Positions 23,382-64,000 of a stretch of DNA of 64,000 bases are shown here, one piece after another. This stretch comes from Bacteroidota bacterium (GTDB lineage Bacteria > Bacteroidota > Bacteroidia > M30B66), in assembly GCA_947460255.1 (NCBI GenBank), contig CANHIS010000001.1:12113-76112 (forward strand). The letters are read 5' to 3'. The position numbers and the translations under genes are program-made. The stretch's first letter is position 1, and each line of letters starts with the position of its first letter. The notes under the pieces are model-generated. The model saw nothing but the letters and a program-made list of their open reading frames with translations. It made no database searches and was not told the origin of the DNA.

Positions 23382-23460
23382 AGGTTGAAAGTCCTTAGAT
23401 AATCACATAAAAAATAAGCCTGCCGGGGATTCCTGACAGGCTTCAAATATAAGGTTTGTC

Positions 23461-51522: not shown

Positions 51523-52944
51523 ATGAAAAAATATCTCGAAAAGAATTTTTTGGTTTCAATCAGCATTTTGGCCATCCTAATGCTTCCATTTCTATTACTT
51601 TCGAAATATAATCTTCCTTCATACGACGATTATGCGGTTCCCAATACACTGAATAAAATGGGGTACTTTCAAACCCAATGGCATTGGTATATCAACTGGA
51701 GCGGCAGATATTCTTCTAGTGCGATTATTGCACTCGTGCATCCGATGATTTATGCAAAGTCAGGTTTAGGGTTTTATGGGCTCTTTAGTACCGCTATACT
51801 GCTTGCTTTTGTAGCTTCATTATACAGATTCATTGCAGCTTTGATACCTGCGGCTAATAGCGGGTATAAATTGAGTACCCTTGCAGGCTTATTGTTTTTG
51901 TATTTATTTGAAATGCCCTCTCCAACCGAAGGTTTTTACTGGCTGGTTGGAGCATGGACTTATACTTTGGGTTTAATTATTGCGTTGGAGCTTGGATCAA
52001 GATTAATGGTTTATTCACAGAATAACAGCAAGTTACAACTTGGATACATTCTATTTCTGGCAATTTTAATACCTGGAACAAGCGAGGTAATCGATATCAT
52101 TTTCATTGCGAGCTATTGTCTGGTGCTTTCGCTGATGTTTCTTCAAAAAGGGAAAATTGATCGAATCCATTTAATTGTTTTAAGTGTTTTGGCGGTATTC
52201 ACGATGTTCTCTTTTCTAGCTCCAGGTAATTCTGTTAGAGCAATAAATGTGGTGGAATCAGGAGTGGCAAGCAAAGATCTAGCAGTTGTTTTGCCTGAAA
52301 CGATTAAGCTTGGCATCAAACACATGGTCCAATGGACTATTCTGGGGCCATTCTTGTTAATAGCTTTTTTAACTCTTTCGTTAAAATCTAAATTACGTAA
52401 CGATTTACTAAGCCTTGTTGATAACTGGATAAAGTTTGGTTATTGGATTTTCGCTAGCAACGGATTTGTTTTTGTGTTCATATTCCCTGTGCTTTGGTCT
52501 TCTGGAATTGCACCTGATCGCATTTTTAATCCCATCGCACTTTACTATATGATAGTGAGCTTGTTGAGCTTGATGTTTTTATTCAATCTGCTGAAAATTA
52601 GAAGCCTAGAAATTCCCATGCCAGCTGTAATCATGATAAGCCTTTTTCTATTCGGTTATACACTCTCTTCCCAGAACCGTATTTCCAGAACGTGGATAGA
52701 GTTGCGCAGTGGAGAGGCTAAAGCATACTATAACGAAATGCAGGAGATCTATTCTATGTGTAAAGAAAATCCAGGTAAAAAATTCGTAATGCGACCAATG
52801 CAGAATAGGCCAAACACAATTTTCATCAACGATTTACACGAAGATTCAACCCACTGGGAAAACCGCTTTTTCAGTAAATTTCATGGTATTGGTTCAGCCC
52901 GGACAGTCGATAGCACGGTTACTTATATTGAATCATTTCAGTAG
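51523..52944 (+). CDS. Polytopic membrane protein of unknown function, candidate GT-C-fold (Gtr-type / ArnT-like) glycosyltransferase
   Basis: It has about 11-13 TM segments. A DD motif (SYDDYAVPN) lies in the first predicted extracytoplasmic loop. It has a ~70-aa C-terminal soluble tail. It converges on the GtrA/GtrB-like operon. Confidence 0.35.
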   Translation: MKKYLEKNFLVSISILAILMLPFLLLSKYNLPSYDDYAVPNTLNKMGYFQTQWHWYINWSGRYSSSAIIALVHPMIYAKSGLGFYGLFSTAILLAFVASLYRFIAALIPAANSGYKLSTLAGLLFLYLFEMPSPTEGFYWLVGAWTYTLGLIIALELGSRLMVYSQNNSKLQLGYILFLAILIPGTSEVIDIIFIASYCLVLSLMFLQKGKIDRIHLIVLSVLAVFTMFSFLAPGNSVRAINVVESGVASKDLAVVLPETIKLGIKHMVQWTILGPFLLIAFLTLSLKSKLRNDLLSLVDNWIKFGYWIFASNGFVFVFIFPVLWSSGIAPDRIFNPIALYYMIVSLLSLMFLFNLLKIRSLEIPMPAVIMISLFLFGYTLSSQNRISRTWIELRSGEAKAYYNEMQEIYSMCKENPGKKFVMRPMQNRPNTIFINDLHEDSTHWENRFFSKFHGIGSARTVDSTVTYIESFQ

Positions 52945-53292: not shown

Positions 53293-53736
53293 TCACTTTT
53301 CGGTTGAAGAAGTCGAAGGATATTGAAAATGAGCGCGAAGTCGGTCGAAAATGATGGTTGCGAAAACAAAATTCCATGCAACTGTGATAGGAATCACCAA
53401 GCAAGAATACACGAAGTCGGAATAATCTAGATATGATTTTAAAACTGAAATCATAGCCAATCCGAATAACATTCCAGAAAAATAGGCCAAATAAAATGCG
53501 CCTAAGTGTATCCAAGAAAACGACTTCTTAAATACCAATTTAGCATTGAGCAAATAGCTTACAAAGATGCTTAGTAGATAGACTATAGAATAGGCAATGT
53601 AAACCTGCCATTGAAGCACTTCCAAGAATAGATATAAGACTGCTGCCGAGGCTGCAGTCATAATCAATCCAACATTTGCAAACCCAATTAGGCGTTTTAC
53701 AAGCGGCTGGAAACGTGGACTAATTCTGGAAATCAT
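53293..53736 (-). CDS. GtrA-family small membrane protein (putative lipid-linked sugar flippase component)
   Basis: It has 4 TM segments and a GtrA-like N-terminal pattern ([27 protein letters not shown]). Confidence 0.6.
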
Positions 53737-54838
53737 TACAAACTTGAATCACCCTTTTAATTTCCTCAGGTAACATTACTGGGCTCATTGGCAAGCTAAT
53801 CACATCGTTGTGTATAGCTTCTGAAACTGGATAAACAAGATGATTCAATTCTTTGTAAGCCTGTTGCTTGTGAGGCGGAATTGGGTAATGAACTACCGTT
53901 TGAACTCCTTGATCTGCTAAGTAATCTTTGAACCTATCACGTAAACCATTCTTCAAACGAATGGCGAAAATATGCCAGATGTGCTCACCATAAGATGCTG
54001 CAACTGGAAGCTGGATCAGTGGATTACAAATTTCTGCCAAGTATTGTTGGGCCACTAGATTACGTTTTGCGTTTTCATCATCAAGATGGGATAATTTTAC
54101 CCCAAGCAAGGCTGCTTGGAGCTCATCTAGACGGCTGTTCACTCCTGGATATAAATTCTCGTACTTCACTTTAGAACCATAATTGTGAAGTGCCAATATG
54201 ACCTCTGCCAGTTGGTCATCGTTGGTTGTAATTGCGCCTGCATCTCCGAGGGCTCCAAGATTTTTGCCTGGATAAAAACTAAATCCAGCGGCATCACCAA
54301 GAGCTCCTGCTCTGATGCCTTTGTATTTCGCACCTTGAGATTGTGCAGCATCTTCAATGAGTTTCAGATGATGATTTGCACAAATATCCTTCAGTGGGCT
54401 CATGTCGGCAGTTTGACCATACAGATGTACCGCGAGAACTGCACGTGTTCTTGGCGTGATCAAACGTTCTACTTCAAGAGGATCCAGATTAAAAGTTGCT
54501 TCATCTGGCTCTGCCAAAACAGGCACTAAATTATTTCTTGAAATAGCTAAAACACTTGCTATATAGGTATTTGAAGGCACAATGATCTCATCACCATCCT
54601 TGAAAATCCCCATAGTTTTATAGGCTTCTATAATAAGAATTAGTGCATCTAATCCATTGGCGACTCCAATGCAATGCTTTACACCACAATAAGTTGCGAA
54701 ATCTTTTTCAAACTGCTCGAGTTCCTTTCCTTTGATGAACCAACCTGAATGCAAAACACGATGAAAAGCTTCTATCAGTTCAGATTCATATTGAAGATTG
54801 ATCCCTTTCAGGTCAAGGAATTTAACAGGAATGCTCAT
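53720..54838 (-). CDS. DegT/DnrJ/EryC1/StrS-family PLP-dependent nucleotide-sugar aminotransferase
   Basis: It has the fold-type-I pattern with the PLP lysine in [15 protein letters not shown]. Confidence 0.85.
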
Positions 54839-54840
54839 AA

Positions 54841-55836
54841 TTAAGAATTTAAAGGCTTCTCGTTAGGTTTCATACCAACAGCTTCATCTACCACAAAGTT
54901 TGGTCGATTTCTAGATGCGTCGAGTGTTCTCCAAACATACTCACCAATTATACCTAAGGCAATCATTTGAAATGACGACAGCAATAAAATCACTGCCATC
55001 AATGCCGCCCAACCCTTCACTTCGATGAAGCCACTCAGTCGAGCAAAGATAATTGCAATTCCATAAATGAATGAGATCAGACCCAAACCAATTCCCAAAA
55101 CTGTAATCAACCGAATTGGAAAAAAGGAGAATGACACAAATGCATCAATGAATAGCTTAATCTTTTTAGAAAGAGTCCACCGCGACTTTCCAATTTCACG
55201 TTTTAGTCGTGTATATGAGATGGTCACATAATCGAACTGAAGCCATGCAAAAAGGTAGGTTTGACTTGAGTTTTTTTCTGAAATCTTTACAACTTCGTGT
55301 TGGAGTTGTTTATCGAAGAGTACAACATCGAAACCATTTTCGGGTATGTTTTTCAACGCGTAACGTTTCATCATTTTGTGATAGAAGGAGGCAAAAAGCT
55401 TTTTAAAAAAACCCTCTTCTCGATCAGATCGATTGGCAATTACGAGCTTTACTCCATTCTGCCAATGGCTAAAGAGTCGCGGTATGAGTTCGGGTGGATC
55501 TTGCAAGTCGGCTGCAATCATGCAACAACAATCACCAGTTGCATAGTGCATTCCCGCCAACACAGCATTGTGCGATCCAACGTTACCAGCAAGCTTTATG
55601 ACTTTTACCCTGTCGGGATATTGCAAATGAAAATCGAATAAGCGTTGGTAGGTTTGATCTTTACTTCCATCATCTACAAACACATACTCCACCTCAGTTC
55701 CTTCTGGAAAACCTTTTTCGTTGTCGATCAGTTTGGCAGTTAGCGAAGGAATATTGCCTTCGTTATAGTAACACGGTATAATGATGCTGATTTTACTCAT
55801 TTTCTTCCTTAACTGATTAATACTAGTTGGAAGCAA
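54841..55836 (-). CDS. GT2 polyprenyl-phosphate glycosyltransferase (GtrB/ArnC/DPM1-like) with two C-terminal TM helices
   Basis: [12 protein letters not shown] ... VFVDDGSKD ... AADLQDP are GT-A motifs. It has a C-terminal membrane anchor. Confidence 0.8.
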
Positions 55837-56521
55837 TCACCAAAATTTCTGCACAAAGTTCAGGATAATCCTTGCCTAATTCATAGAAAGCCTGAATCAT
55901 ATCTTGTGAAAACCACTGTTCAATTTGACCATTAGCTAAAAATTTCAAAAACACTCCTGTTTCATGGCTGATAGAGAATCCAGCTTCGGTTAGATGAGCT
56001 TTCAACAAATCCATATCATACACTCGTTCATGACCTAACTGAAGGTCGCGTTCGTTGAGGCTATAAATGCTTTCAAGTAAGCCCATTTTCACTGCTACCA
56101 TGCGGTGGAATGACTTGGCATTGGGCACACCTACAATAAACTTACCGCCAGGTGAAAGCCAAGCGAGAATCTGCTTCAACAATGGAACTGGGTCAGCAAT
56201 ATGTTCCAACACATGGTTGAGGATGATGGTATCAAATTTTTCATCCGTTTGAAAATCTTGAAACAAACTACACACTTTCACAAGATTGGGCGCGTCTGCA
56301 ATTTTCTCAACAAGATCAGCAGCACCTTCAACAGCTACTACTCTTTCGAAATCGTTCAACAAAAACCGAGTCATATAACCCGATGATGGCCCTAGCTCTA
56401 AACAGTTTTTACCATGAAAATAAGGCTTCGCAGCCTCATAACAATAGGTAGTTAACTGGTAATCGATTTGCAGAATCTTATTTGAATAGAAACTAGCAAA
56501 ATTGTCAGGATGTGCGCTCAT
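55823..56521 (-). CDS. Class I SAM-dependent methyltransferase
   Basis: It has SAM motif I (CLELGPSSGYMT) and a Methyltransf_11-like layout. Confidence 0.75.
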   Translation of the reverse strand: MSAHPDNFASFYSNKILQIDYQLTTYCYEAAKPYFHGKNCLELGPSSGYMTRFLLNDFERVVAVEGAADLVEKIADAPNLVKVCSLFQDFQTDEKFDTIILNHVLEHIADPVPLLKQILAWLSPGGKFIVGVPNAKSFHRMVAVKMGLLESIYSLNERDLQLGHERVYDMDLLKAHLTEAGFSISHETGVFLKFLANGQIEQWFSQDMIQAFYELGKDYPELCAEILVIASN

Positions 56522-56530
56522 CGAAGAAAA

Positions 56531-57289
56531 TCAAGGATTGTAAATGAGGTAACCAGAATTGGCTCTAAATGGAGAGTGTTTTATTTCAAACGATGATGTT
56601 CCAAGAATTTCGCGCAGAGCTGCAGTTTCTCCCGGCCATTCTTTGTCGTTGATTTCATCAAATCCGATCACTGCACCTCTATTCAAATAAGGTTTAATCG
56701 CCTTTAAACACTCTGCAGTAGGCTTGTAAATGTCGAAATCAAAATAAGCCATCGATATGATAGTTTCTGGATGAGCTTCTAGATACTGGTGAACAGTTTC
56801 AGTTGCATCGCCTTTCACCAATTCGAATTTCTTGATGCTTTCAACAGGAGCTAATTTTTCGTGTGTGAGCAAAATATGCTCTAGATACTGCTCATATCCT
56901 TCAGGCACATTAAAATCTCCTGCCTTCCACTTTTCGGTATCTACTGCTTCAACATCAGGGAATCCAGAAAATGTATCAAAGCCAACAATTTTCCGGTTGT
57001 GATTAAATGGCTCATAAATACCACGCATTGAAGTCAATAGCGCAAGATTTTGCCCATAACGTACTCCAAATTCAAAAATAGACCCATGCAATTTCATTTG
57101 TGCAGTGTATAGTTCTTGCACATATAAAAAACGTGAAAACAAGCGTCGGTCGATGTACAACCCAATATTTAGCAAAATTTCCTCCTTAGGAATTGGTGAG
57201 CTAAATAGCAATTCTTTGAGCTGACTTCTGTTCGCGAAATCCTCAGGATTCAATCGTTTCTGTTGTTCGCTATCGTGGGTAAAATTCAT
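56531..57289 (-). CDS. TylF/MycF-family (macrocin-O-methyltransferase-like) sugar O-methyltransferase
   Basis: FEFGVRYGQN and VGFDTFSGFPD are motifs characteristic of the TylF family. Confidence 0.65.
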   Translation of the reverse strand: MNFTHDSEQQKRLNPEDFANRSQLKELLFSSPIPKEEILLNIGLYIDRRLFSRFLYVQELYTAQMKLHGSIFEFGVRYGQNLALLTSMRGIYEPFNHNRKIVGFDTFSGFPDVEAVDTEKWKAGDFNVPEGYEQYLEHILLTHEKLAPVESIKKFELVKGDATETVHQYLEAHPETIISMAYFDFDIYKPTAECLKAIKPYLNRGAVIGFDEINDKEWPGETAALREILGTSSFEIKHSPFRANSGYLIYNP

Positions 57290-57522
57290 GCGTTTGCTTT
57301 CTTTTGAATGAGGTCAAGTAAAATATGCACCGATTTTATAGATTCGATTTCTTCTGGAGTAAATTGAAAATTCAATTGATCTTCCAATTCAACAATGAGA
57401 TTCAAATGGTTTATAGAATCCCATTCTGGAAGGTTCTCCTTACTTGTTTCCGAATTAATCGAAACATCTGAAGAAAAGGCATTTCTAAATATTTCTTGAA
57501 GCTGTTCGATTGTTATTGCCAT
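57286..57522 (-). CDS. Discrete acyl carrier protein
   Basis: It is a 78-aa acidic four-helix pattern with the phosphopantetheinylation motif LPEWDSINHLNL. Confidence 0.75.
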   Translation of the reverse strand: MAITIEQLQEIFRNAFSSDVSINSETSKENLPEWDSINHLNLIVELEDQLNFQFTPEEIESIKSVHILLDLIQKKANA

Positions 57523-59042
57523 ATCGGGTCTTTTGAAAGTTGAAGATAGAAATCCTCAGCGGGTTTATTTCTATCTGTTTTAACAAATTCGAATTGATTA
57601 ATTGAAAGTCCTTGTTGTTGAAATTCGCTGTAAACATAGTTCAGAAAATCAGATTCGATGCGCCTTCCCAATGCTCTGCAGCTCATTAAAAAATTATGGA
57701 GGATAAAGGATTCGTCGTTTTTCAATAATAAGATAACGCCAACCAAGCCATAATCTCCGTATTTATCGGAAACTCGCAAGGTATATATTCGATTTCCCGA
57801 GGTTGAAAGTTCTAAAATTTCAGCAGGGGAATAAGCAATTTTATTAAAATTAAATTGATTGGTCTTCTGCGTTAATTGGGAAACCCTTTCAAAATCTCCT
57901 GCATCGTTACAACGAATATCCAGTTTGATCGATAAGCTTTTAATGTAATCTTCCATCGAACCAAAAGAGGCTTCATCAAGCTTTCGTGAAGCTTCTTCAA
58001 CATACTGCTGATGCTTTCTCAGGTCTTCAGCACTGAGGTGTTTCCTTTTGAAAAGAAAAGAATCGATGGTTACTAAAAAATCTGAATAATCTTTTTTCAC
58101 CTGAAAAACACTGACTTCAGGAAGCAATGAGCGAACACTTTGGACTTCAAAATCGCTATCATCTAAAAAGATGAGTGAATCCGTTCCAATGTTTAATGCA
58201 ACAGCAATAGAGCGCAAATTCATTGATTTATCCTCCCAATTCACTTTTTTCAAAATGAAATCATCCCATTTCAATGGCATGTTGAGGGTATCGAAAGCTT
58301 CTTTTACATCATTTTCATTATTCTTGGAACAAAGACATAAAAGGAAACCCAAGTTTTTGCGCTCAATTAAAAATTGTTGGAGGTGATAGAATAAAATCCC
58401 TTCGTGACTTAAATCGCAACGAATTCCTGACAATCCATCTTCGCCAATTATCCCATTCCAAAGCGTATTGTCGCAGTCTAATACAATAACTTTTTTCTCT
58501 GGTTGATGAAGGAAATCGGTCCATTGGTTTATCATTGATGCAAAAGCACCAATTGCCCTTTTATTGTAAGGCATCTGATAAAGATGGCCTAACGAATACG
58601 TATAGATATTTGAATATCCGATCAAACGGAATTGTTCATCAATGTTCAGCCAATAAAAGTTCGGCAATACATTAAGTTTTTCAACCTCTTGGTGAAGTAA
58701 CTGCCAAGCATCTTGAACACCATTTATACCTTTCGAAAGTATTGCTTTGGGATAAGGTAGTTCGATTAAATCCGAGCATAAAATATTCACCGATGTGTTC
58801 TTGCACAAAAACTCTATTTGCTTAAGCAATCCTGCAATCTTTTCAGTTGTGTGTTTTTTAAACCGAACATCTGTATGGATTATTATCAAATCATAAGATT
58901 GCAATTTTACCGGTTCGGTTGAATGCAATCCGCCTAAGAGATCCTCATGATAAGCAATTTCAATTTGGTGTTTACCATCTTGTTGGAGCAATTTTGCAAC
59001 GGGCTCCAATACAATATCCGAGAGAAAAAATATTTTCATCAC
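57513..59042 (-). CDS. FkbH-like protein (HAD-superfamily subfamily IIIC) with an N-terminal extension
   Basis: Motifs seen are VIVLDCDNTLWNGIIGEDG, LCSKNNENDV, KVNWEDKSMNL and LIFLDDSDFE. These match the HAD-IIIC/FkbH core. Confidence 0.75.
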   Translation of the reverse strand: MMKIFFLSDIVLEPVAKLLQQDGKHQIEIAYHEDLLGGLHSTEPVKLQSYDLIIIHTDVRFKKHTTEKIAGLLKQIEFLCKNTSVNILCSDLIELPYPKAILSKGINGVQDAWQLLHQEVEKLNVLPNFYWLNIDEQFRLIGYSNIYTYSLGHLYQMPYNKRAIGAFASMINQWTDFLHQPEKKVIVLDCDNTLWNGIIGEDGLSGIRCDLSHEGILFYHLQQFLIERKNLGFLLCLCSKNNENDVKEAFDTLNMPLKWDDFILKKVNWEDKSMNLRSIAVALNIGTDSLIFLDDSDFEVQSVRSLLPEVSVFQVKKDYSDFLVTIDSFLFKRKHLSAEDLRKHQQYVEEASRKLDEASFGSMEDYIKSLSIKLDIRCNDAGDFERVSQLTQKTNQFNFNKIAYSPAEILELSTSGNRIYTLRVSDKYGDYGLVGVILLLKNDESFILHNFLMSCRALGRRIESDFLNYVYSEFQQQGLSINQFEFVKTDRNKPAEDFYLQLSKDPIWQ

Positions 59043-59434
59043 AAATGGTTTGGATCAATTAAAAATTCAACAACCTGTTGATTTCTTGTGTAGTAAAAAA
59101 CAACTTCTTTGCCTTCGAAAAGTATAGCAGGAACGGGGCCTAACACTTTTATCATTCTTAATTGGATGGCGTAATCCTCCGCAATTTTGATGTCGTTCAC
59201 GGTATAACAAAAGTGGTGAAAATGATTCCCGTTCTTTTGCAATGCATTCCACGTAAAAGCTGAATTTCCTAATGGTTGAATCAATTCAATTAAGACATCA
59301 GAATGGTTGTTGTAGAGCGCCAAACGAGCATTTTGTATAGGATCTTCAACACTTGCAACACACTCACCCAATGGATGTTTCTTCGCATACTGAGCAATGT
59401 CGGCCACTACAAATCCTGTATGGTGTAATTTCAT
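59039..59434 (-). CDS. VOC-family (glyoxalase / methylmalonyl-CoA-epimerase-like) protein
   Basis: MKLHHTGFVVADI is a glyoxalase-fold N-terminus. It is 131 aa. Confidence 0.65.
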   Translation of the reverse strand: MKLHHTGFVVADIAQYAKKHPLGECVASVEDPIQNARLALYNNHSDVLIELIQPLGNSAFTWNALQKNGNHFHHFCYTVNDIKIAEDYAIQLRMIKVLGPVPAILFEGKEVVFYYTRNQQVVEFLIDPNHL

Positions 59435-60027
59435 CCTGCGAAGCGAGCAATTAATTGATCAATTTTAGTGTAATTGAAACCTTGATAAGCCTCCTGGGTA
59501 ATTCCTTGGACATGCAAATCGAAATTAGTTTGCGGGTCGAATTCATTTCCACAGTCGGTAAATCCGAACCGGAGATGCTGTCTCCATACAGCTTCATTTG
59601 ATTCTGCAGTGCGGCAATATAGATACTTCAAACCAATCTCTTCAAAAGCAATTTGAAGTATCATTCTTTCGGATTCAACAGCCTGAACGGCTTGTGTACA
59701 AACATATCTGCCAAATTCTCCAGATCCATTTTTAATGTTATAAATGGAAATGGTTCCAACAGGAATTTCATTTAGGTTGAGGATCATGAAATAATGTTGA
59801 TCAGTAGCCTCCAAATTTTTCCGCAACCAAGCCAATTGATCTTCTATTGTAAGGGGCTTGCTGGATGATAAAAATCGATTAATAGATGGATTGTTGCGCA
59901 TTTCAATTATAGCAGCAGCATCTTCTTCAGTAACCGAACGAAGGATGGTATTTTTCCCTTTAAACTGTTTTTTCATTTCGGTATTGAAGAAATTCATCCA
60001 TATCTCTGATGTAATCATTTGCTTCAT
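59431..60027 (-). CDS. GNAT-family N-acyltransferase (RimL/RimJ-like). An alternative start lies near 59976.
   Basis: It has the GNAT fold pattern. The first ATG overlaps the upstream cupin by 68 nt, so an internal start is likely. Confidence 0.7.
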   Translation of the reverse strand: MKQMITSEIWMNFFNTEMKKQFKGKNTILRSVTEEDAAAIIEMRNNPSINRFLSSSKPLTIEDQLAWLRKNLEATDQHYFMILNLNEIPVGTISIYNIKNGSGEFGRYVCTQAVQAVESERMILQIAFEEIGLKYLYCRTAESNEAVWRQHLRFGFTDCGNEFDPQTNFDLHVQGITQEAYQGFNYTKIDQLIARFAG

Positions 60028-60391
60028 AAGTGTGAGAAGCCAGCACTAAGCAAACAGCACCTGAAGAAAAATTAACTTCTTCGGCCCAAACCCCTGGAGG
60101 AATATGCAAGCCCATGTATGGTCGATTAAGCTGCACTTGACGCTTAATAGCTCCATCGAATAGAATGACTTCGAAGCTCCCACAAACTGCAACCAAAAAT
60201 TGATGACATGTGTAATGCGCGTGAGCTCCACGATTTTCACCGCCTGGAATGTCGTATAAATAAAATACACGATTAACGTCAAACGACAAATGACGAGAAT
60301 TCTCTACGTAGGTTAAATTCCCTCTATCGTCTTTGATCTTTGGAAGATAAATCAACTCACAATTGTAAACGGTTGGCAATTTATTATCCAT
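59960..60391 (-). CDS. FdtA/QdtA/WxcM-like cupin (dTDP-4-keto-6-deoxyhexose 3,4-ketoisomerase family), copy 2
   Basis: DDRGNLTYVE ... IPGGENRGAHAHY ... matches the WxcM-like domain. I moved the start to ATG 60391 (MDNKLP), which overlaps the upstream cupin stop in ATGGATAA. Confidence 0.7.
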   Translation of the reverse strand: MDNKLPTVYNCELIYLPKIKDDRGNLTYVENSRHLSFDVNRVFYLYDIPGGENRGAHAHYTCHQFLVAVCGSFEVILFDGAIKRQVQLNRPYMGLHIPPGVWAEEVNFSSGAVCLVLASHTYEANDYIRDMDEFLQYRNEKTV

Positions 60392-60782
60392 GTGCGATAA
60401 AGGATTTAAATTGGTCGTAATCCCTGATATAGTCCGACTCGTCGTAAACTTCAGATGCTGAAACAAGGCAAACTGCGTTGGTAGAAAAATTTTGCAAACT
60501 TCTCCAAGTTCCTGCAGGTAAATACAATGCATTGTATGATCTATTCAAGGAAAAAATCTCCGATCCAGTTCTTCCCTCTACGTGTACATCAAAGCTGCCC
60601 GACAATGCAATTACAATTTCTTGCAATGACTTGTAGGCATGTCCTCCACGTGTTTCACCACCTGGAACATCGTAAATCCAATAAGTACGTTTTATCTCAA
60701 AAGGAATTTGATTAGCACTTTCGAAAAAAGACAGGTTGCCTCTGCGATCTATAATCTTGGGTAATTGTATAATTTTCACCAT
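60384..60782 (-). CDS. FdtA/QdtA/WxcM-like cupin (3,4-ketoisomerase family), copy 1
   Basis: DRRGNLSFFE ... VPGGETRGGHAYK ... matches the WxcM-like domain. Confidence 0.7.
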   Translation of the reverse strand: MVKIIQLPKIIDRRGNLSFFESANQIPFEIKRTYWIYDVPGGETRGGHAYKSLQEIVIALSGSFDVHVEGRTGSEIFSLNRSYNALYLPAGTWRSLQNFSTNAVCLVSASEVYDESDYIRDYDQFKSFIAHG

Positions 60783-60798
60783 GCCTGAAACTAATGCA

Positions 60799-60806
60799 CA
60801 AATATA
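60799..60806 (-). promoter_or_regulatory. Bacteroidetes -7 promoter element (TAtaTTTG) driving the cupin-to-GtrA operon
   Basis: The minus strand reads TATATTTG, 16 nt upstream of the ATG at 60782. This sits in a 330-bp AT-rich spacer. Confidence 0.45.
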
Positions 60807-61112
60807 TAAAGTTCGATGATGCTTCCTAAGGCTTAATGATGATTGTAAATGATGTGAATTTCTTTAAAAACAAGTGGCAAATCGATTTAAAAATCATGAG
60901 GAAAACAAAATCGAAAGGATCACTTATTATTGGGGAATGTAGATTTGTAAAACAATAAATTCATGAAGAACAAAGACTTTTCAGACCCTTATAAACCAAC
61001 TTGAGTTTCAACTTCGATTTTCAAGACTACTACAATTAGGTCAGAAAGACCAAAGCTGCATGCGATCTTTTGAGATCGATATTGTCATCAAATCAGACAC
61101 AAAAATCAAACT

Positions 61113-61994
61113 CTATGATTTAATGTTAATTAAACTCGAATGTTCACTAATCCTGAAACACATCCTCGAAAAATCGAACACTCTTTTATTTCTGTTAAAT
61201 AATAAAAGACCTAACAAACTGAATAATATTAAAAAGAAAAATGTAAGAATATAAAACCATTTTGAACCTAAAGATAAACTAGTCAAAACAACTACGCTAA
61301 AAAATGAAATCAAGAGAAACACACCTTTAACACTTGAAAAGAATGCCTCTAAAGCATAATTAACCTTCCTGAAAAACGTCCACTGCGATTTCCCCCTCTT
61401 TCTTGCCCGGCGTTCATAAGGCAAAAATGATTTAATGGCATTTAACTGAATAACATCGCCTTGGAGAAAACTCCTACCAGTTCTGATGCAATTAAATTCA
61501 TCAATTGCTTTACGATCCAAGCCGAAGAAATCAAACCCTCCAAATGGTATTCTTGGATAAATTAACCTAATCGACTTATAGAAAGCTGCCGAGAAAAACC
61601 GGTCTATCCAACGATCTTCCCGTGAAGTTCTAAAACAAATAATCACTTCAAAGCAAGCTTCCCAGCTTCTCAAGATCTCTTGAATCATCTCTACTGGATC
61701 TTGCAAATCGGCCGACATAACAACTGCTAAATCCCCTTTACAGTGCTTCAAACCAGCCTGAATAGCAGGAACTTGACCGTAATTTCTATCAAATGATAAA
61801 TATTGAACGCGTGAATCATTGGAATTTAATTTCTTGATGATTTCCAACGATTCGTCATCAGATCCATCATCAACAAAAATCAATTCGGGTTTTAAGTCAG
61901 GCTGTTTGTTAAACACACCTAGCAATTCACTGTACAGCTCTATTAAAGTAGAAGCGTTGCGAAAAACAGGAACAACTACCGAAACAATCTTCAT
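61113..61994 (-). CDS. GT2 polyprenyl-phosphate glycosyltransferase (GtrB/ArnC-like), second copy, with C-terminal TM helices
   Basis: VVVPVFRNASTL ... IFVDDGSDDES ... SADLQDP are GT-A motifs. It has C-terminal hydrophobic helices. Confidence 0.8.
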   Translation of the reverse strand: MKIVSVVVPVFRNASTLIELYSELLGVFNKQPDLKPELIFVDDGSDDESLEIIKKLNSNDSRVQYLSFDRNYGQVPAIQAGLKHCKGDLAVVMSADLQDPVEMIQEILRSWEACFEVIICFRTSREDRWIDRFFSAAFYKSIRLIYPRIPFGGFDFFGLDRKAIDEFNCIRTGRSFLQGDVIQLNAIKSFLPYERRARKRGKSQWTFFRKVNYALEAFFSSVKGVFLLISFFSVVVLTSLSLGSKWFYILTFFFLILFSLLGLLLFNRNKRVFDFSRMCFRISEHSSLINIKS

Positions 61995-62623
61995 TTTCTT
62001 GTAACAATTCTTGCAGGATTACCATAAGCCATCACGCCATTGGGAAGATCTTTTGTAACTACCGAACCTGCACCAACAGTAACGAAATCGCCAATCTTCA
62101 CGCCTGGTAAAACAATTGATCCCGCTCCTAGAAAAGATTGTGTACCAACTTTAGACTTGCCCAATAACTTGACTCCAGGCCCAATTTCAGCAAAATCGCC
62201 AACGCTCACTTGATGGGTAACCATGCTGCCTAAATTGAGAATAACTCCTTTTCCAATTGAGCAAGTCGGCTCAACTATCGCTTGTGCTAAACAAATAACT
62301 CCCGATAGATTGTTCAATAAACCAGTTGGTAAAACAGCTGATGGATCAATTACAGAAGTGAGCGTCCCTCCAATTTTTTCAAACCGCTCGCACATTTCAG
62401 CTCTATTCGTTCTAACGCCCGTGCCTAAACAAAACCTATTATCTACGGTTTCCAAATAGTGTTTTGCCAATTGTACAGACCTCAACAATTTAAACTGTTG
62501 ATTTAAATGCGTATCGACTTGAAATTCAGGATCGCAGAAAAAAGCTGGATTTAATGTAGCATCCATTCGTTGCATGGCGAACAAAACCTGATTGGCAAAA
62601 CCTCCTGCACCTAAAATTAACAT
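61991..62623 (-). CDS. NeuD/PglD-family hexapeptide-repeat sugar N-acetyltransferase
   Basis: It has an N-terminal Rossmann-like MLILGAGGFANQV and a C-terminal left-handed beta-helix of hexapeptide repeats. Confidence 0.75.
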   Translation of the reverse strand: MLILGAGGFANQVLFAMQRMDATLNPAFFCDPEFQVDTHLNQQFKLLRSVQLAKHYLETVDNRFCLGTGVRTNRAEMCERFEKIGGTLTSVIDPSAVLPTGLLNNLSGVICLAQAIVEPTCSIGKGVILNLGSMVTHQVSVGDFAEIGPGVKLLGKSKVGTQSFLGAGSIVLPGVKIGDFVTVGAGSVVTKDLPNGVMAYGNPARIVTRK

Positions 62624-63699
62624 CCTGATTGAATTATCAATTCGGAAATAAAATTCACGTCCTTCTCCGTTAAATCAGGACTTAAGGGCAAACACAGCAC
62701 TCGTTTCGACAAATCGGTAGATGTGTCGTTGATCAAATTGTTGTTCACATAATTTAATCGATTCAACGATGGATAAAAATATCTCCTCGGGAAAATTTGT
62801 TTGTCTGCAAGAACTGAACGAGCTGCTAGCAAGCGTTCTTCCGAAGAAAATAAAACTGGAAAATAAGCATGGTTAACTCGCGTAGTTCCTTCTTGAATCT
62901 GCATCATTTGTAAGCCAGAGTTGAACAAGCGATCTTGATAAAAACCTACAACCTTGCTTCGTTTTTCGATAATTTCATCCACATAAGGAAACACCGAAAG
63001 CCCCATTGCTGCTTGAAATTCTGAAGCTTTGGCATTAATTCCAATCCCAAAAAAATCTTCAGGTCCGTTGTAACCAAAATTTCTCATATAGCCGATTTTG
63101 TGAGCTACAGCATCGTTGTTGGTTACCAAAGCTCCACCCTCGATTGTATGAAAAATCTTTGTTGCATGAAAACTCAATACGGTAACATCACCGTAAGAAG
63201 CTAAAGGTTTTCCTTTATAATCTACTCCAAATGCATGTGCTCCGTCGAAAATTAAAGGGATTTCATATTCTTCAGCGATTTCGGTCAATGCCTCTATTTC
63301 ACAAGGATTTCCGTATACGTGTGTTGCCAAAATAGCTTCAACCTCTGAAGTCAATTCTGCTCGAATTGAGGTAGGTGAAATAGTAAAAGTCTTTGGGTTT
63401 ATGTCTGCAAAAACTGGCTCAACACCTTCCCAAACCATAGCGCTTGTGGTAGCTACACATGAAAATGGCGTGGTGATAATTTTCTTCTGAATACCGAGAG
63501 CCTTCGCTGCAATTTGCAAGGCCATCGTGCCATTTGTTACAAAAAATACATGTTTTACCTGCAAATAATCTGCAAGCACTTTTTCAAGTTCTAAAACCAA
63601 AGGACCATGATTTGTTAGCTGCCCACGCTCCCAAATTCCTTTCAGATATTCGATGTACGAATCTAACGGTGGTAAAAAAGATTTGGTAACCTGAATCAT
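62617..63699 (-). CDS. DegT/DnrJ/EryC1/StrS-family sugar aminotransferase (PglE-like)
   Basis: It has the fold-type-I pattern with a lysine in SFHATKIF. Confidence 0.85.
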   Translation of the reverse strand: MIQVTKSFLPPLDSYIEYLKGIWERGQLTNHGPLVLELEKVLADYLQVKHVFFVTNGTMALQIAAKALGIQKKIITTPFSCVATTSAMVWEGVEPVFADINPKTFTISPTSIRAELTSEVEAILATHVYGNPCEIEALTEIAEEYEIPLIFDGAHAFGVDYKGKPLASYGDVTVLSFHATKIFHTIEGGALVTNNDAVAHKIGYMRNFGYNGPEDFFGIGINAKASEFQAAMGLSVFPYVDEIIEKRSKVVGFYQDRLFNSGLQMMQIQEGTTRVNHAYFPVLFSSEERLLAARSVLADKQIFPRRYFYPSLNRLNYVNNNLINDTSTDLSKRVLCLPLSPDLTEKDVNFISELIIQSGC

Positions 63700-64000
63700 C
63701 CTTCAATCAAGTGAAATTATTTGTTGAAGAAAGCTTCATCATATCTAATTCCATCAATTGCAAATATATCCAAACCATTAATTACCTAATAAAAGAATTG
63801 AATTGCTGTTTATTTAAACAATCAGTGAATAATTTCCTATTCTACTGCTAATTCACGGCACGAATTTGGTAATATTGCGCGGTCATACATATAAATACAG
63901 CTTTTTAACAAATTCAAATGAGTCAGTCGCTGAAATCGCTTTTTGCCGAAGTTATCCATCCACATGCTGCAGCCGTTAAGCAAATGGTAGCCGAACACGG

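Follow-up and report, generated by a model that had tools for sequence, protein, structure and literature searches.

What is an FkbH-type acyl-loading enzyme with its own acyl carrier protein (ACP) doing in the middle of a nucleotide-sugar operon? The question is raised by a stretch of 64,000 nucleotides (nt) from a Bacteroidota bacterium (assembly GCA_947460255.1, contig CANHIS010000001.1, positions 12,113 to 76,112), called the window here, in which eight tightly packed minus-strand open reading frames (ORFs) make up positions 55823-60782. Our answer, to which we give a probability of roughly 0.55, is that they belong to a surface-glycan decoration operon of the Gtr/Arn type that makes an unusually N-acylated 3-amino-3,6-dideoxyhexose. 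We are much surer of the sugar scaffold in this answer than of which acyl unit is used or what the methyltransferases act on. According to Pfam and NCBIfam the eight ORFs encode two FdtA cupins, a GNAT, a VOC protein, an FkbH protein, a small ACP and two S-adenosylmethionine (SAM) methyltransferases. They are listed here by descending coordinates, followed by the DegT aminotransferase of the pathway, which lies outside 55823-60782:

60384..60782, minus strand: FdtA-family cupin 1, 132 residues (PF05523, E 1e-49)
59960..60391, minus strand (ORF 59960-60532): FdtA-family cupin 2, 143 residues from an internal Met (PF05523, E 1e-51)
59431..60027, minus strand (likely start 59976): GNAT acyltransferase, FdhC/PseH-like (PF13302, E 7e-17)
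59039..59434, minus strand: VOC-fold protein, 131 residues (PF13669, Glyoxalase_4, E 6.5e-10)
57513..59042, minus strand: FkbH-domain protein, 509 residues (TIGR01686, 263.6 bits, cutoff 146.65)
57286..57522, minus strand: discrete ACP, 78 residues (NCBIfam ACP models, E 1e-6; phosphopantetheine-attachment Ser36 in W-D-S)
56531..57289, minus strand: SAM O-methyltransferase, 252 residues, CalS11-like (TylF/MycF/NovP superfamily; CalS11 4gf5, E 5e-60)
55823..56521, minus strand: class I SAM methyltransferase, 232 residues (PF13489, Methyltransf_23, E 8e-17)
53720..54838, minus strand: DegT-family aminotransferase of the WlaRG/QdtB type, 372 residues (PF01041, E 7e-108)

The eight ORFs were found exactly where the initial annotation had placed them, and the tight minus-strand run with overlaps of 4-17 nt that it described is reproduced once two starts are corrected. 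Cupin 2 probably begins at the internal Met at 60391 (143 residues) and the GNAT at 59976 (181 residues); we restarted both genes because the resulting lengths agree with the gene calls in a 72%-identical relative, locus L002. The motifs named at the time, LDCDNTLWNG, SKN, NWEDK and FLDD in the FkbH-like protein and DSI in the ACP, can all be read in the translations. The interval sits inside a larger operon, an unbroken minus-strand gene run from 63699 down to 53293, which also contains the WlaRG/QdtB-type C3 aminotransferase, a family 2 glycosyltransferase (GT2) of the GtrB/ArnC-like type and GtrA. This arrangement is not a product of chance, since a nine-gene block was found again in the loci L001, L002 and L037 at 46-72% protein identity. 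In a scan of species-representative genome contigs, the one locus recovered was L001 (46% identity).

The 509-residue protein had been described as FkbH-like, and it clearly is more than a plain HAD phosphatase. The TIGR01686 match, well over its cutoff, extends over residues 182-504 and covers profile positions 2-319 of 323, the C-terminal part included, and TIGR01681 (HAD-IIIC) contributes a match of 65.5 bits. We aligned 25 homologues first and then 85 relatives drawn from 84 loci. In the latter, D189, D191, T193, S239, K240, N241, D294, D295, the triplet S454-C455-R456 and E463 are invariant, even where the domain is fused into ORFs of 2,000-4,000 residues. D189, D191 and T193 constitute HAD motif I, and all HAD motifs I-IV are intact. 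The AlphaFold model (predicted local distance difference test score, pLDDT, 85.4) has three domains: an N-terminal alpha/beta domain, the HAD-IIIC phosphatase and a GNAT-like C-terminal domain that harbours Ser454-Cys455-Arg456. Using Foldseek, the N-terminal and HAD domains together retrieved 3slr ('N-terminal part of BF1531', Bacteroides fragilis; E 1.5e-20), the HAD domain retrieved MDP-1 phosphatases, and the C-terminal domain GNAT acyltransferases (AprA GNAT, AtNATA1/2). Cys455 is placed by the model at the junction of strand 445-453 and helix 456-476. In the GNAT fold, the beta4-alpha3 junction is the site of the thioester of the pantetheine-bound acyl group, and the modelled position of Cys455 would be equivalent to it. 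OzmB (366 residues) takes 1,3-bisphosphoglycerate through a phosphoglyceryl-S-enzyme and a glyceryl-S-enzyme to glyceryl-S-ACP (PMC9057759, PMC7489565), and each residue required by this published mechanism is present in the window protein.

Names from Bacteroidia/Chitinophagaceae on homologues, taken with a type IX secretion sorting domain in another protein of the window, place the organism in Bacteroidota. The protein collection searched contains no sequence identical to the FkbH protein. A tblastn search of plasmids with this protein gave distant relatives only (<38% identity), mostly from Streptomyces, Bacillus, Ralstonia and Sinorhizobium, and no annotated glycan example was among them. 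In three metagenomic loci (L054, L056, L077) the FkbH domain lies inside single ORFs of 2,372-4,347 residues, presumably megasynthases of the polyketide synthase (PKS)/nonribosomal peptide synthetase (NRPS) kind, and DxDxT and SCR are kept. The N-terminal and HAD domains have a single relative among solved structures, 3slr, which is an unpublished structural-genomics fragment of an FkbH-like protein from B. fragilis; no full-length FkbH structure was found in the PDB copy searched.

The small protein encoded next to FkbH had been taken for a discrete ACP with a modifiable serine, and its positional homologues bear this out. The triplet W34-D35-S36 is invariant in 21 of them encoded next to FkbH genes, 15 of the 21 match PF00550 (best E 1.6e-9), and in 60 FkbH-adjacent ACP homologues WDS is conserved at at least 90%.

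The sugar to be modified is indicated by the cupins and the C3 aminotransferase. Both cupins match PF05523, in agreement with their earlier description as FdtA-like, and among solved structures both are nearest to FdtA (2pa7), 5tpu, 7n67, QdtA and WlaRA. The closest structure for cupin 1 is FdtA 2pa7 (E 8e-30); those for cupin 2 are 5tpu (E 2e-32) and FdtA. Cupin 1 has His-Ala-Tyr in place of FdtA His49-Ala-His51 and so lacks the catalytic His-x-His motif; cupin 2 has the canonical His-Ala-His. In the cupin pairs of the window, L001, L002, L003 and L006 the first member always carries His-Ala-Tyr or His-Ala-Phe and the second always His-Ala-His. This is a conserved division of labour, which could stand for a difference in the stereochemistry of the products, for a partner that regulates or does not catalyse, or for a heterodimer; cupin 2 is the presumed dTDP-4-keto-6-deoxyglucose 3,4-ketoisomerase. 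The closest solved structures of the 372-residue DegT protein are 5u1z (E 2e-131) and QdtB 3frk (E 5e-115), which is why we regard it as the C3 aminotransferase for dTDP-3-keto-6-deoxyhexoses. We take 5tpu to be WlaRB and 5u1z to be WlaRG; the PDB titles say 'putative' only. In papers by Holden and Gilbert, WlaRA and WlaRB are said to give the galacto and gluco 3-keto sugars.

Transfer of an acyl group to the amine of the dTDP-3-amino sugar is presumably the task of the GNAT. Its closest solved relatives are FdhC (5kta, E 2e-12) and then PseH (4xpk, E 2e-8). In E. coli O103, Acinetobacter and Hafnia, dTDP-Fuc3N and dTDP-Qui3N receive a 3-hydroxybutanoyl group from the transferases FdhC and QdhC (PMC4869667). 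The proposal that the GNAT N-acylates the amino sugar with a group taken from the ACP is supported in its first half, with FdhC as the nearest relative and a conserved GNAT-FkbH-ACP cassette beside FdtA/DegT genes; the choice of the ACP rather than coenzyme A (CoA) as the donor is what we infer. For the VOC protein the closest solved relatives are 2qh0 and 3hdp, both glyoxalase-I-like structural-genomics proteins, and human methylmalonyl-CoA epimerase (3rmu). The metal ligands H5, E50, H73 and E123 are kept in 13 orthologues. What methylmalonyl-CoA epimerase does is invert a thioester at its alpha-carbon. The VOC protein's likeness to this enzyme and the four preserved ligands fit the earlier suggestion that the VOC protein may epimerise the acyl-ACP, a reaction that is predicted only. 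To go by its sequence, it may work like an epimerase without being a member of the methylmalonyl-CoA epimerase family; by analogy, its simplest job would be inversion of C2 of glyceryl-S-ACP to yield the L-glyceroyl form.

How strongly these genes belong together was judged from 84 loci with FkbH relatives, in which ORFs were called and searched using the window proteins. Fourteen of the loci form a close subfamily (at least 40% FkbH identity); the denominators are the loci with enough flank. In the close loci an ACP follows FkbH in 12/12 and a window-type GNAT precedes it, again in 12/12, with the VOC gene between GNAT and FkbH in 10/12 (absent in L003 and L004). The 232-residue methyltransferase is present in 5/10, the 252-residue one in 3/11 and a GtrB-like GT2 in 5/10. 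The GNAT, FkbH and ACP genes of the close loci often overlap. The cassette adjoins FdtA/DegT genes in L001, L002, L003, L006, L011 and L037. Its surroundings are Wzx/Wzy-type clusters that contain an FdtA pair and DegT (L003, L037), operons of the Gtr-like kind (the window, L002) and other amino-sugar clusters (L004, L007, L009). Comparison of gene neighbourhoods, which the initial annotation had proposed as a check, thus identifies GNAT-FkbH-ACP as a conserved cassette beside FdtA/DegT genes.

In the loci of more distant FkbH relatives, the gene after FkbH encodes an ACP in 40/58; DegT is found no more than 8 kb away in 13/26 and FdtA in 7/26. The order in the FdtA/DegT-linked cases is FkbH - ACP - AMP-dependent ligase - (GNAT) - FdtA - DegT. 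Since ACP, DegT and FdtA genes stand beside even these distant relatives, carrier-protein N-acyl assembly for 3-amino-3,6-dideoxyhexoses is a recurring theme, and the window contains its minimal form. In L079 (4868-14333) and L029 (32-5171) an FkbH protein of ~600 residues and an ACP are followed by the AMP-dependent ligase, GNAT, FdtA and DegT. Upstream, L079 encodes a GNAT, a short-chain dehydrogenase/reductase (SDR), a metallo-beta-lactamase-fold protein, FabH and a MaoC-dehydratase/SDR fusion; the locus looks like a small line, similar to type II fatty acid synthesis, that builds a longer hydroxyacyl amide on the 3-amino sugar.

Two further loci, L089 (5474-10831) and L090 (5105-10808), share the frame FdtA, FdtA, a variable middle slot, a relative of the 232-residue methyltransferase, DegT and GT2. 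In L089 the slot is filled by an unknown 355-residue protein, an SDR and a HAD hydrolase. In L090 it holds a fused E1/transketolase-like protein of 654 residues and a left-handed beta-helix (LbH) acyltransferase of 376 residues, a pair that may make a two-carbon (glycolyl-type) unit. Because other genes fill the slot in these loci, GNAT-VOC-FkbH-ACP appears as one of several interchangeable acyl-donor cassettes, and this exchangeability supports the N-acylation model.

The interval ends with the two methyltransferase genes. The 252-residue protein aligns across 235 residues with CalS11 (4gf5), a TDP-rhamnose 3'-O-methyltransferase. TylF, MycF and NovP are all sugar-hydroxyl methyltransferases. 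As for the earlier label of a TylF-type O-methyltransferase, the kinship holds and the Pfam assignment does not: PF05711 (TylF) itself is not matched, the only Pfam hit being Methyltransf_24 with 24.6 bits, under the cutoff, whereas the CalS11 match is strong and some homologues have PF05711 or the NCBI name 'TylF/MycF/NovP-related'. CalS11 acts at position 3' of TDP-rhamnose, and position 3 of the window sugar carries nitrogen, so the methylated hydroxyl must be a different one, ring O-2 or O-4 or a glyceroyl hydroxyl. Relatives with 60-64% identity occur in loci without any glycan genes (L087, L088), and the gene accompanies the module only in L001, L002 and L037. The closest solved structure to the 232-residue methyltransferase is the hypothetical protein 2p7h (E 7e-37). 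Its relatives lie directly upstream of DegT in L011, L013, L089 and L090. Those of L089 and L090 (50-55% identity) are in FdtA-pair/DegT clusters without FkbH or ACP, which shows that this enzyme is independent of glyceryl-ACP.

The suggestion that one or both methyltransferases modify the glyceryl unit has therefore lost ground, one being CalS11-like with relatives also outside glycan loci, the other having kin without FkbH and ACP. That both methylate the glyceryl unit is weakened rather than excluded, because the FkbH-less clusters may themselves make hydroxyacyl groups. Methylation could take place at O-2 or O-4 of the sugar ring, at the glyceroyl hydroxyls, or at one of each. An arrangement with one enzyme acting on the ring and one on the acyl group is our tentative choice. 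Action of both on the ring we regard as doubtful and action of both on the acyl group as unlikely, and some other arrangement of targets would come as a surprise.

Put together, these data suggest the following route. The products of rmlA and rmlB, encoded elsewhere, would supply dTDP-4-keto-6-deoxyglucose, which the FdtA cupins isomerise and the WlaRG/QdtB-type DegT enzyme aminates at C3 to dTDP-Fuc3N and/or dTDP-Qui3N, as close homology shows for this part of the route. The FkbH protein would take 1,3-bisphosphoglycerate, the 3-phosphate being stripped by its HAD domain while a conserved Cys holds the glyceryl group. By the OzmB/FkbH mechanism and the conserved residues, this group would then be loaded onto the phosphopantetheine at Ser36 of the ACP. 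The VOC protein would act on the thioester, most likely by inverting C2 of glyceryl-S-ACP. The conserved cassette points to the FdhC-like GNAT as the enzyme that would take the acyl group off the ACP and place it on the C3 amine of the dTDP-sugar. The CalS11-like and the second methyltransferase would add O-methyl groups, either to ring hydroxyls or to glyceroyl hydroxyls. The gene content further suggests that the GtrB/ArnC-like GT2 puts the sugar on undecaprenyl phosphate, that GtrA flips it and that a divergently encoded GT-C protein attaches it to periplasmic lipopolysaccharide (LPS), polysaccharide or glycoprotein.

A number of observations weigh against this route. The ACP scores 16.7 bits against PF00550, under the Pfam cutoff of 20.8. 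Neither rmlA nor rmlB was found in the 64-kb window. Two cysteines of the FkbH protein are conserved, Cys455 of the SCR triplet in 85/85 sequences and Cys190, between the motif-I aspartates in DCDNT, in 84/86, so that either may be the acyl-carrying residue. The GNAT falls under the cutoff of the PseH equivalog model (68.8 vs 93.1 bits), which means that it is not PseH itself, and its nearest relative, FdhC, uses a CoA thioester. The VOC protein matches the methylmalonyl-CoA epimerase model TIGR03081 with E 3e-8 and 34.2 bits at a cutoff of 114.95, and L003 and L004, where the cassette occurs without it, indicate that it is not essential. The source is an uncultured metagenome bin and hence offers no glycan structure to compare. 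The acyl unit, the donor of the GNAT (ACP or CoA) and the VOC reaction are all what we infer.

If the donor is taken at the value of the nearest solved relatives, FdhC and PseH, both of which use CoA thioesters, the GNAT would be an ordinary CoA-dependent N-acyltransferase (acetyl or 3-hydroxybutanoyl), and FkbH, ACP and VOC would serve another acceptor, for example in the O-acylation of a glycan or envelope molecule. Other acceptors are also suggested by an FkbH-like gene on a plasmid of Sinorhizobium meliloti, whose neighbours include a small carrier-like ORF as well as an MBOAT O-acyltransferase gene. We nevertheless consider this quite unlikely, given that GNAT, FkbH and ACP adjoin in 12/12 close loci and often overlap, that this part of the operon encodes no other ACP-using acyltransferase (the LbH enzyme is part of the C4-amine branch upstream), and that the cassette fills a slot which in L089 and L090 is occupied by different N-acyl donor cassettes. 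A separate doubt concerns the unit that is loaded. The FkbH subfamily of the window is only 25-38% identical to the actinomycete and Bacillus FkbH-type genes, has no assayed member in the literature searched, and carries an additional N-terminal domain of ~180 residues that has no assigned function and resembles only 3slr; it might load something other than glycerate, in which case the N-acyl group would not be glyceroyl. The HAD phosphatase residues and SCR are, however, invariant throughout the family, and the phosphatase step implies a donor that is an acyl phosphate and at the same time a phosphate ester, for which 1,3-bisphosphoglycerate is the obvious candidate by FkbH/OzmB chemistry (PMC9057759, PMC7489565); a non-glycerate unit therefore seems improbable to us.

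Far less credible still is that the genes are left over from, or belong to, a polyketide extender-unit (methoxymalonyl-ACP) or tetronate pathway. FkbH, a discrete ACP and an O-methyltransferase do represent three of the five methoxymalonyl-ACP genes (PMC9057759, PMC7489565). However, the methyltransferases of the window are not FkbG-like (one is CalS11-like, the other 2p7h-like) and all neighbouring genes are sugar-pathway genes. We rejected a polyketide or tetronate role since the condensing and oxidising partners are all absent: no ketosynthase (KS), acyltransferase (AT), FkbI/FkbK-type dehydrogenase or FabH-like gene was found in the operon or anywhere in the 64-kb window. This agrees with the earlier conclusion, drawn from the lack of KS, AT, FkbI and FkbK, that the genes do not constitute an extender-unit pathway.

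The proposed N-acylation operon combines features of several known systems. With FkbH/OzmB and its discrete ACP it shares the TIGR01686 match over cutoff, the HAD motifs, the conserved Cys and the adjoining small ACP. Unlike these systems it has no dehydrogenases, FkbG-type methyltransferase, FabH-like enzyme or PKS, and has nucleotide-sugar genes, a GNAT and a VOC protein as neighbours instead; the additional N-terminal domain of its FkbH protein is missing from the 366-residue OzmB (PMC9057759). A cupin isomerase, a C3 aminotransferase and a GNAT N-acyltransferase are likewise laid out in FdtA/FdtB/FdhC and QdtA/QdtB/QdhC, whose sugars are dTDP-Fuc3N and dTDP-Qui3N with an N-(R)-3-hydroxybutanoyl group (PMC4869667). 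The CoA-thioester donor in the FdhC/QdhC pathways comes from general metabolism, whereas the window has a dedicated FkbH-ACP-VOC cassette in the operon. WlaRA/WlaRB/WlaRG of Campylobacter jejuni 81116 likewise comprise two adjoining FdtA cupins and a very similar aminotransferase, and 5tpu, 5tpv and 5u1z are among the best matches; the first cupin of the window differs by its His-Ala-Tyr in place of His-Ala-His, and the N-acyl chemistry is different.

Closer to the acyl group is the C. jejuni flagellin locus, where an FkbH-domain gene (cj1302) lies in a glycan locus and the glycan carries a methylated glyceroyl amide, a likeness at the level of annotation; the sugar there is a nonulosonic acid (pseudaminic acid), in contrast to the 3-amino-3,6-dideoxyhexose of the window. 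A C. jejuni strain with a pseudogenised cj1302 lacks dimethylglycerate-modified pseudaminic acid, and strains without cj1302 or the neighbouring 'epimerase' cj1301 lack the 2,3-di-O-methylglyceroyl form, all of which is correlative (PMC7099621). A requirement for the C. jejuni dimethylglycerate glycan has been shown for one gene only, Cj1295 (PMC3068675). For Pse5Am7Gra of Tannerella forsythia, the genetic basis of the N-glyceroyl group was described as unknown and 'a major challenge' in 2017 (PMC5378307). Apart from a side remark in PMC7099621, FkbH is not tied to glycan N-acylation in the openly searchable literature, so that, as far as this literature goes, the enzyme combination is indeed uncharacterised in glycan biosynthesis, as was initially supposed. 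What is new is the predicted joining of FkbH/ACP glyceryl loading to FdhC-type amino-sugar N-acylation within a Gtr/Arn-like delivery operon. It is not a new principle: each enzyme type is known, and an FkbH gene in a glycan locus had been noticed before.

A more specific version of this pathway would have the FkbH protein and ACP supply D-glyceryl-S-ACP, the VOC protein invert C2 and both methyltransferases act on the glyceroyl hydroxyls, so that the operon makes a 3-(2,3-di-O-methyl-glyceroyl)amino-3,6-dideoxyhexose. We would not bet on this product, but if it is made, the operon would provide the first gene-to-chemistry account of 'dimethylglyceric acid' and of N-glyceroyl amides on Campylobacter and Tannerella surface sugars, and would mean that a carrier loading typical of polyketides has been recruited widely (the homologues number in the thousands) as an exchangeable cassette for the N-acylation of nucleotide sugars. 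N-glyceroyl and di-O-methylglyceroyl amides decorate the surface sugars of pathogens (T. forsythia Pse5Am7Gra, C. jejuni DMGA-Pse), and their origin is still only correlative (PMC5378307, PMC7099621). It would also show that ACP-tethered acyl donors tailor nucleotide sugars, beyond lipid A and polyketide synthesis. Placed within the well-understood dTDP-Fuc3N/Qui3N pathway, the cassette is a clean system for work in vitro, with every sugar substrate to hand as well as near structural relatives of the other enzymes, and predictions of glycan chemistry from metagenomes can make use of the exchangeable acyl slot that lies between the FdtA genes and DegT.

An arrangement with a different acceptor is found on the S. 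meliloti GR4 plasmid pRmeGR4d (L091, NC_019849.2, 5119-10170; the record is unannotated), where an FkbH-like gene of 628 residues comes directly after an MBOAT O-acyltransferase, an unknown 409-residue ORF and an 82-residue ORF. By analogy with Dlt systems, which the layout recalls, it suggests carrier-protein-dependent glyceroylation of an extracytoplasmic polymer. An FkbH homologue is present on about 40 Sinorhizobium plasmids.

The predicted delivery of the sugar and a second set of genes upstream involve the following features:

54841..55836, minus strand (likely start 55800, 319 residues): GtrB/ArnC/PgfS-type GT2, which presumably transfers sugar to polyprenyl phosphate (PF00535, E 4e-24)
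53293..53736, minus strand: GtrA-family small membrane protein, presumed polyprenyl-phosphate sugar flippase (PF04138, E 2e-11)
51523..52944, plus strand: polytopic membrane protein, 473 residues, GtrC-like (PF19528, E 1e-18 over 10-461)
62617..63699, minus strand: DegT aminotransferase, 360 residues, DesI/perosamine-synthase (C4) type, first gene of the operon (PF01041, E 2e-81)
61991..62623, minus strand: LbH sugar N-acetyltransferase of the NeuD/PglB/VioB family (TIGR03570, 156 bits, cutoff 160.8)
61113..61994, minus strand: GT2, 293 residues, hydrophobic C-terminus (PF00535, E 9e-25; partial PgfS and ArnC matches)
60783..61112, no strand: 330-nt gap without coding sequence; TATATTTG lies in it on the minus strand (60799-60806), 17 nt ahead of the start of FdtA1

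The GT2 downstream of the methyltransferases matches PgfS (181.6 bits) and ArnC (146.6 bits, positions 3-314 of 316) over the full length, both under the equivalog cutoffs, and a GtrB-like GT2 also comes after the module in L001, L002, L004, L007 and L009. The divergent plus-strand gene 51523-52944 adjoins the operon. Its family is DUF6056, now GT_STM0557_N; the gene has the same position in L002, and its product is the presumed periplasmic transferase to the final acceptor. Encoded together, GtrA, a GtrB/ArnC/PgfS-type GT2 and the GT_STM0557_N protein resemble the Gtr (GtrA/GtrB/GtrC) and Arn (ArnC/ArnT) systems. The cargo, in contrast to the glucose or Ara4N of those systems, would be an acylated, methylated dTDP-derived amino-dideoxyhexose, and the operon adds a full tailoring pathway and a second GT2 branch.

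This second branch comprises the genes at 61113-63699, which look like a separate pathway for a 4-acetamido-4,6-dideoxy-type sugar on lipid phosphate. The best NCBIfam match of the 360-residue DegT protein is DesI (253.6 bits, under the cutoff), and its closest solved structures are 2po3 and perosamine synthetases; those of the acetyltransferase are PerB (4ea7, E 6e-20), PglD and VioB. The 293-residue GT2 is probably a second polyprenyl-phosphate sugar transferase. Against its two GT2 genes, the operon has just one GtrA and one GT-C gene.

The two sets of genes are separated by the 330-nt gap. The element TATATTTG occurs five times in the 64-kb window; besides the copy before FdtA1, a minus-strand copy is located at 63761-63768, just upstream of the first DegT gene, and a third at 23444-23451 upstream of an ABC-transporter gene. 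TATATTTG resembles the -7 box of Bacteroidota promoters, and to judge from the motif the copy before FdtA1 is possibly an internal promoter. The two-box Bacteroidota-type pattern TTTG-N17-21-TAnnTTTG has 2 matches in the window, with 2.8 expected, neither of them near the operon. L002 has an Acyl_transf_3 gene where the window has the gap, which suggests gene loss and two transcription units. The rest of the window is housekeeping in nature, with a ribosomal protein operon, rpoA, carA, eno, pheT, dnaJ/grpE, a uvrD-like gene and others. Among its other products is one that bears a type IX secretion sorting domain.

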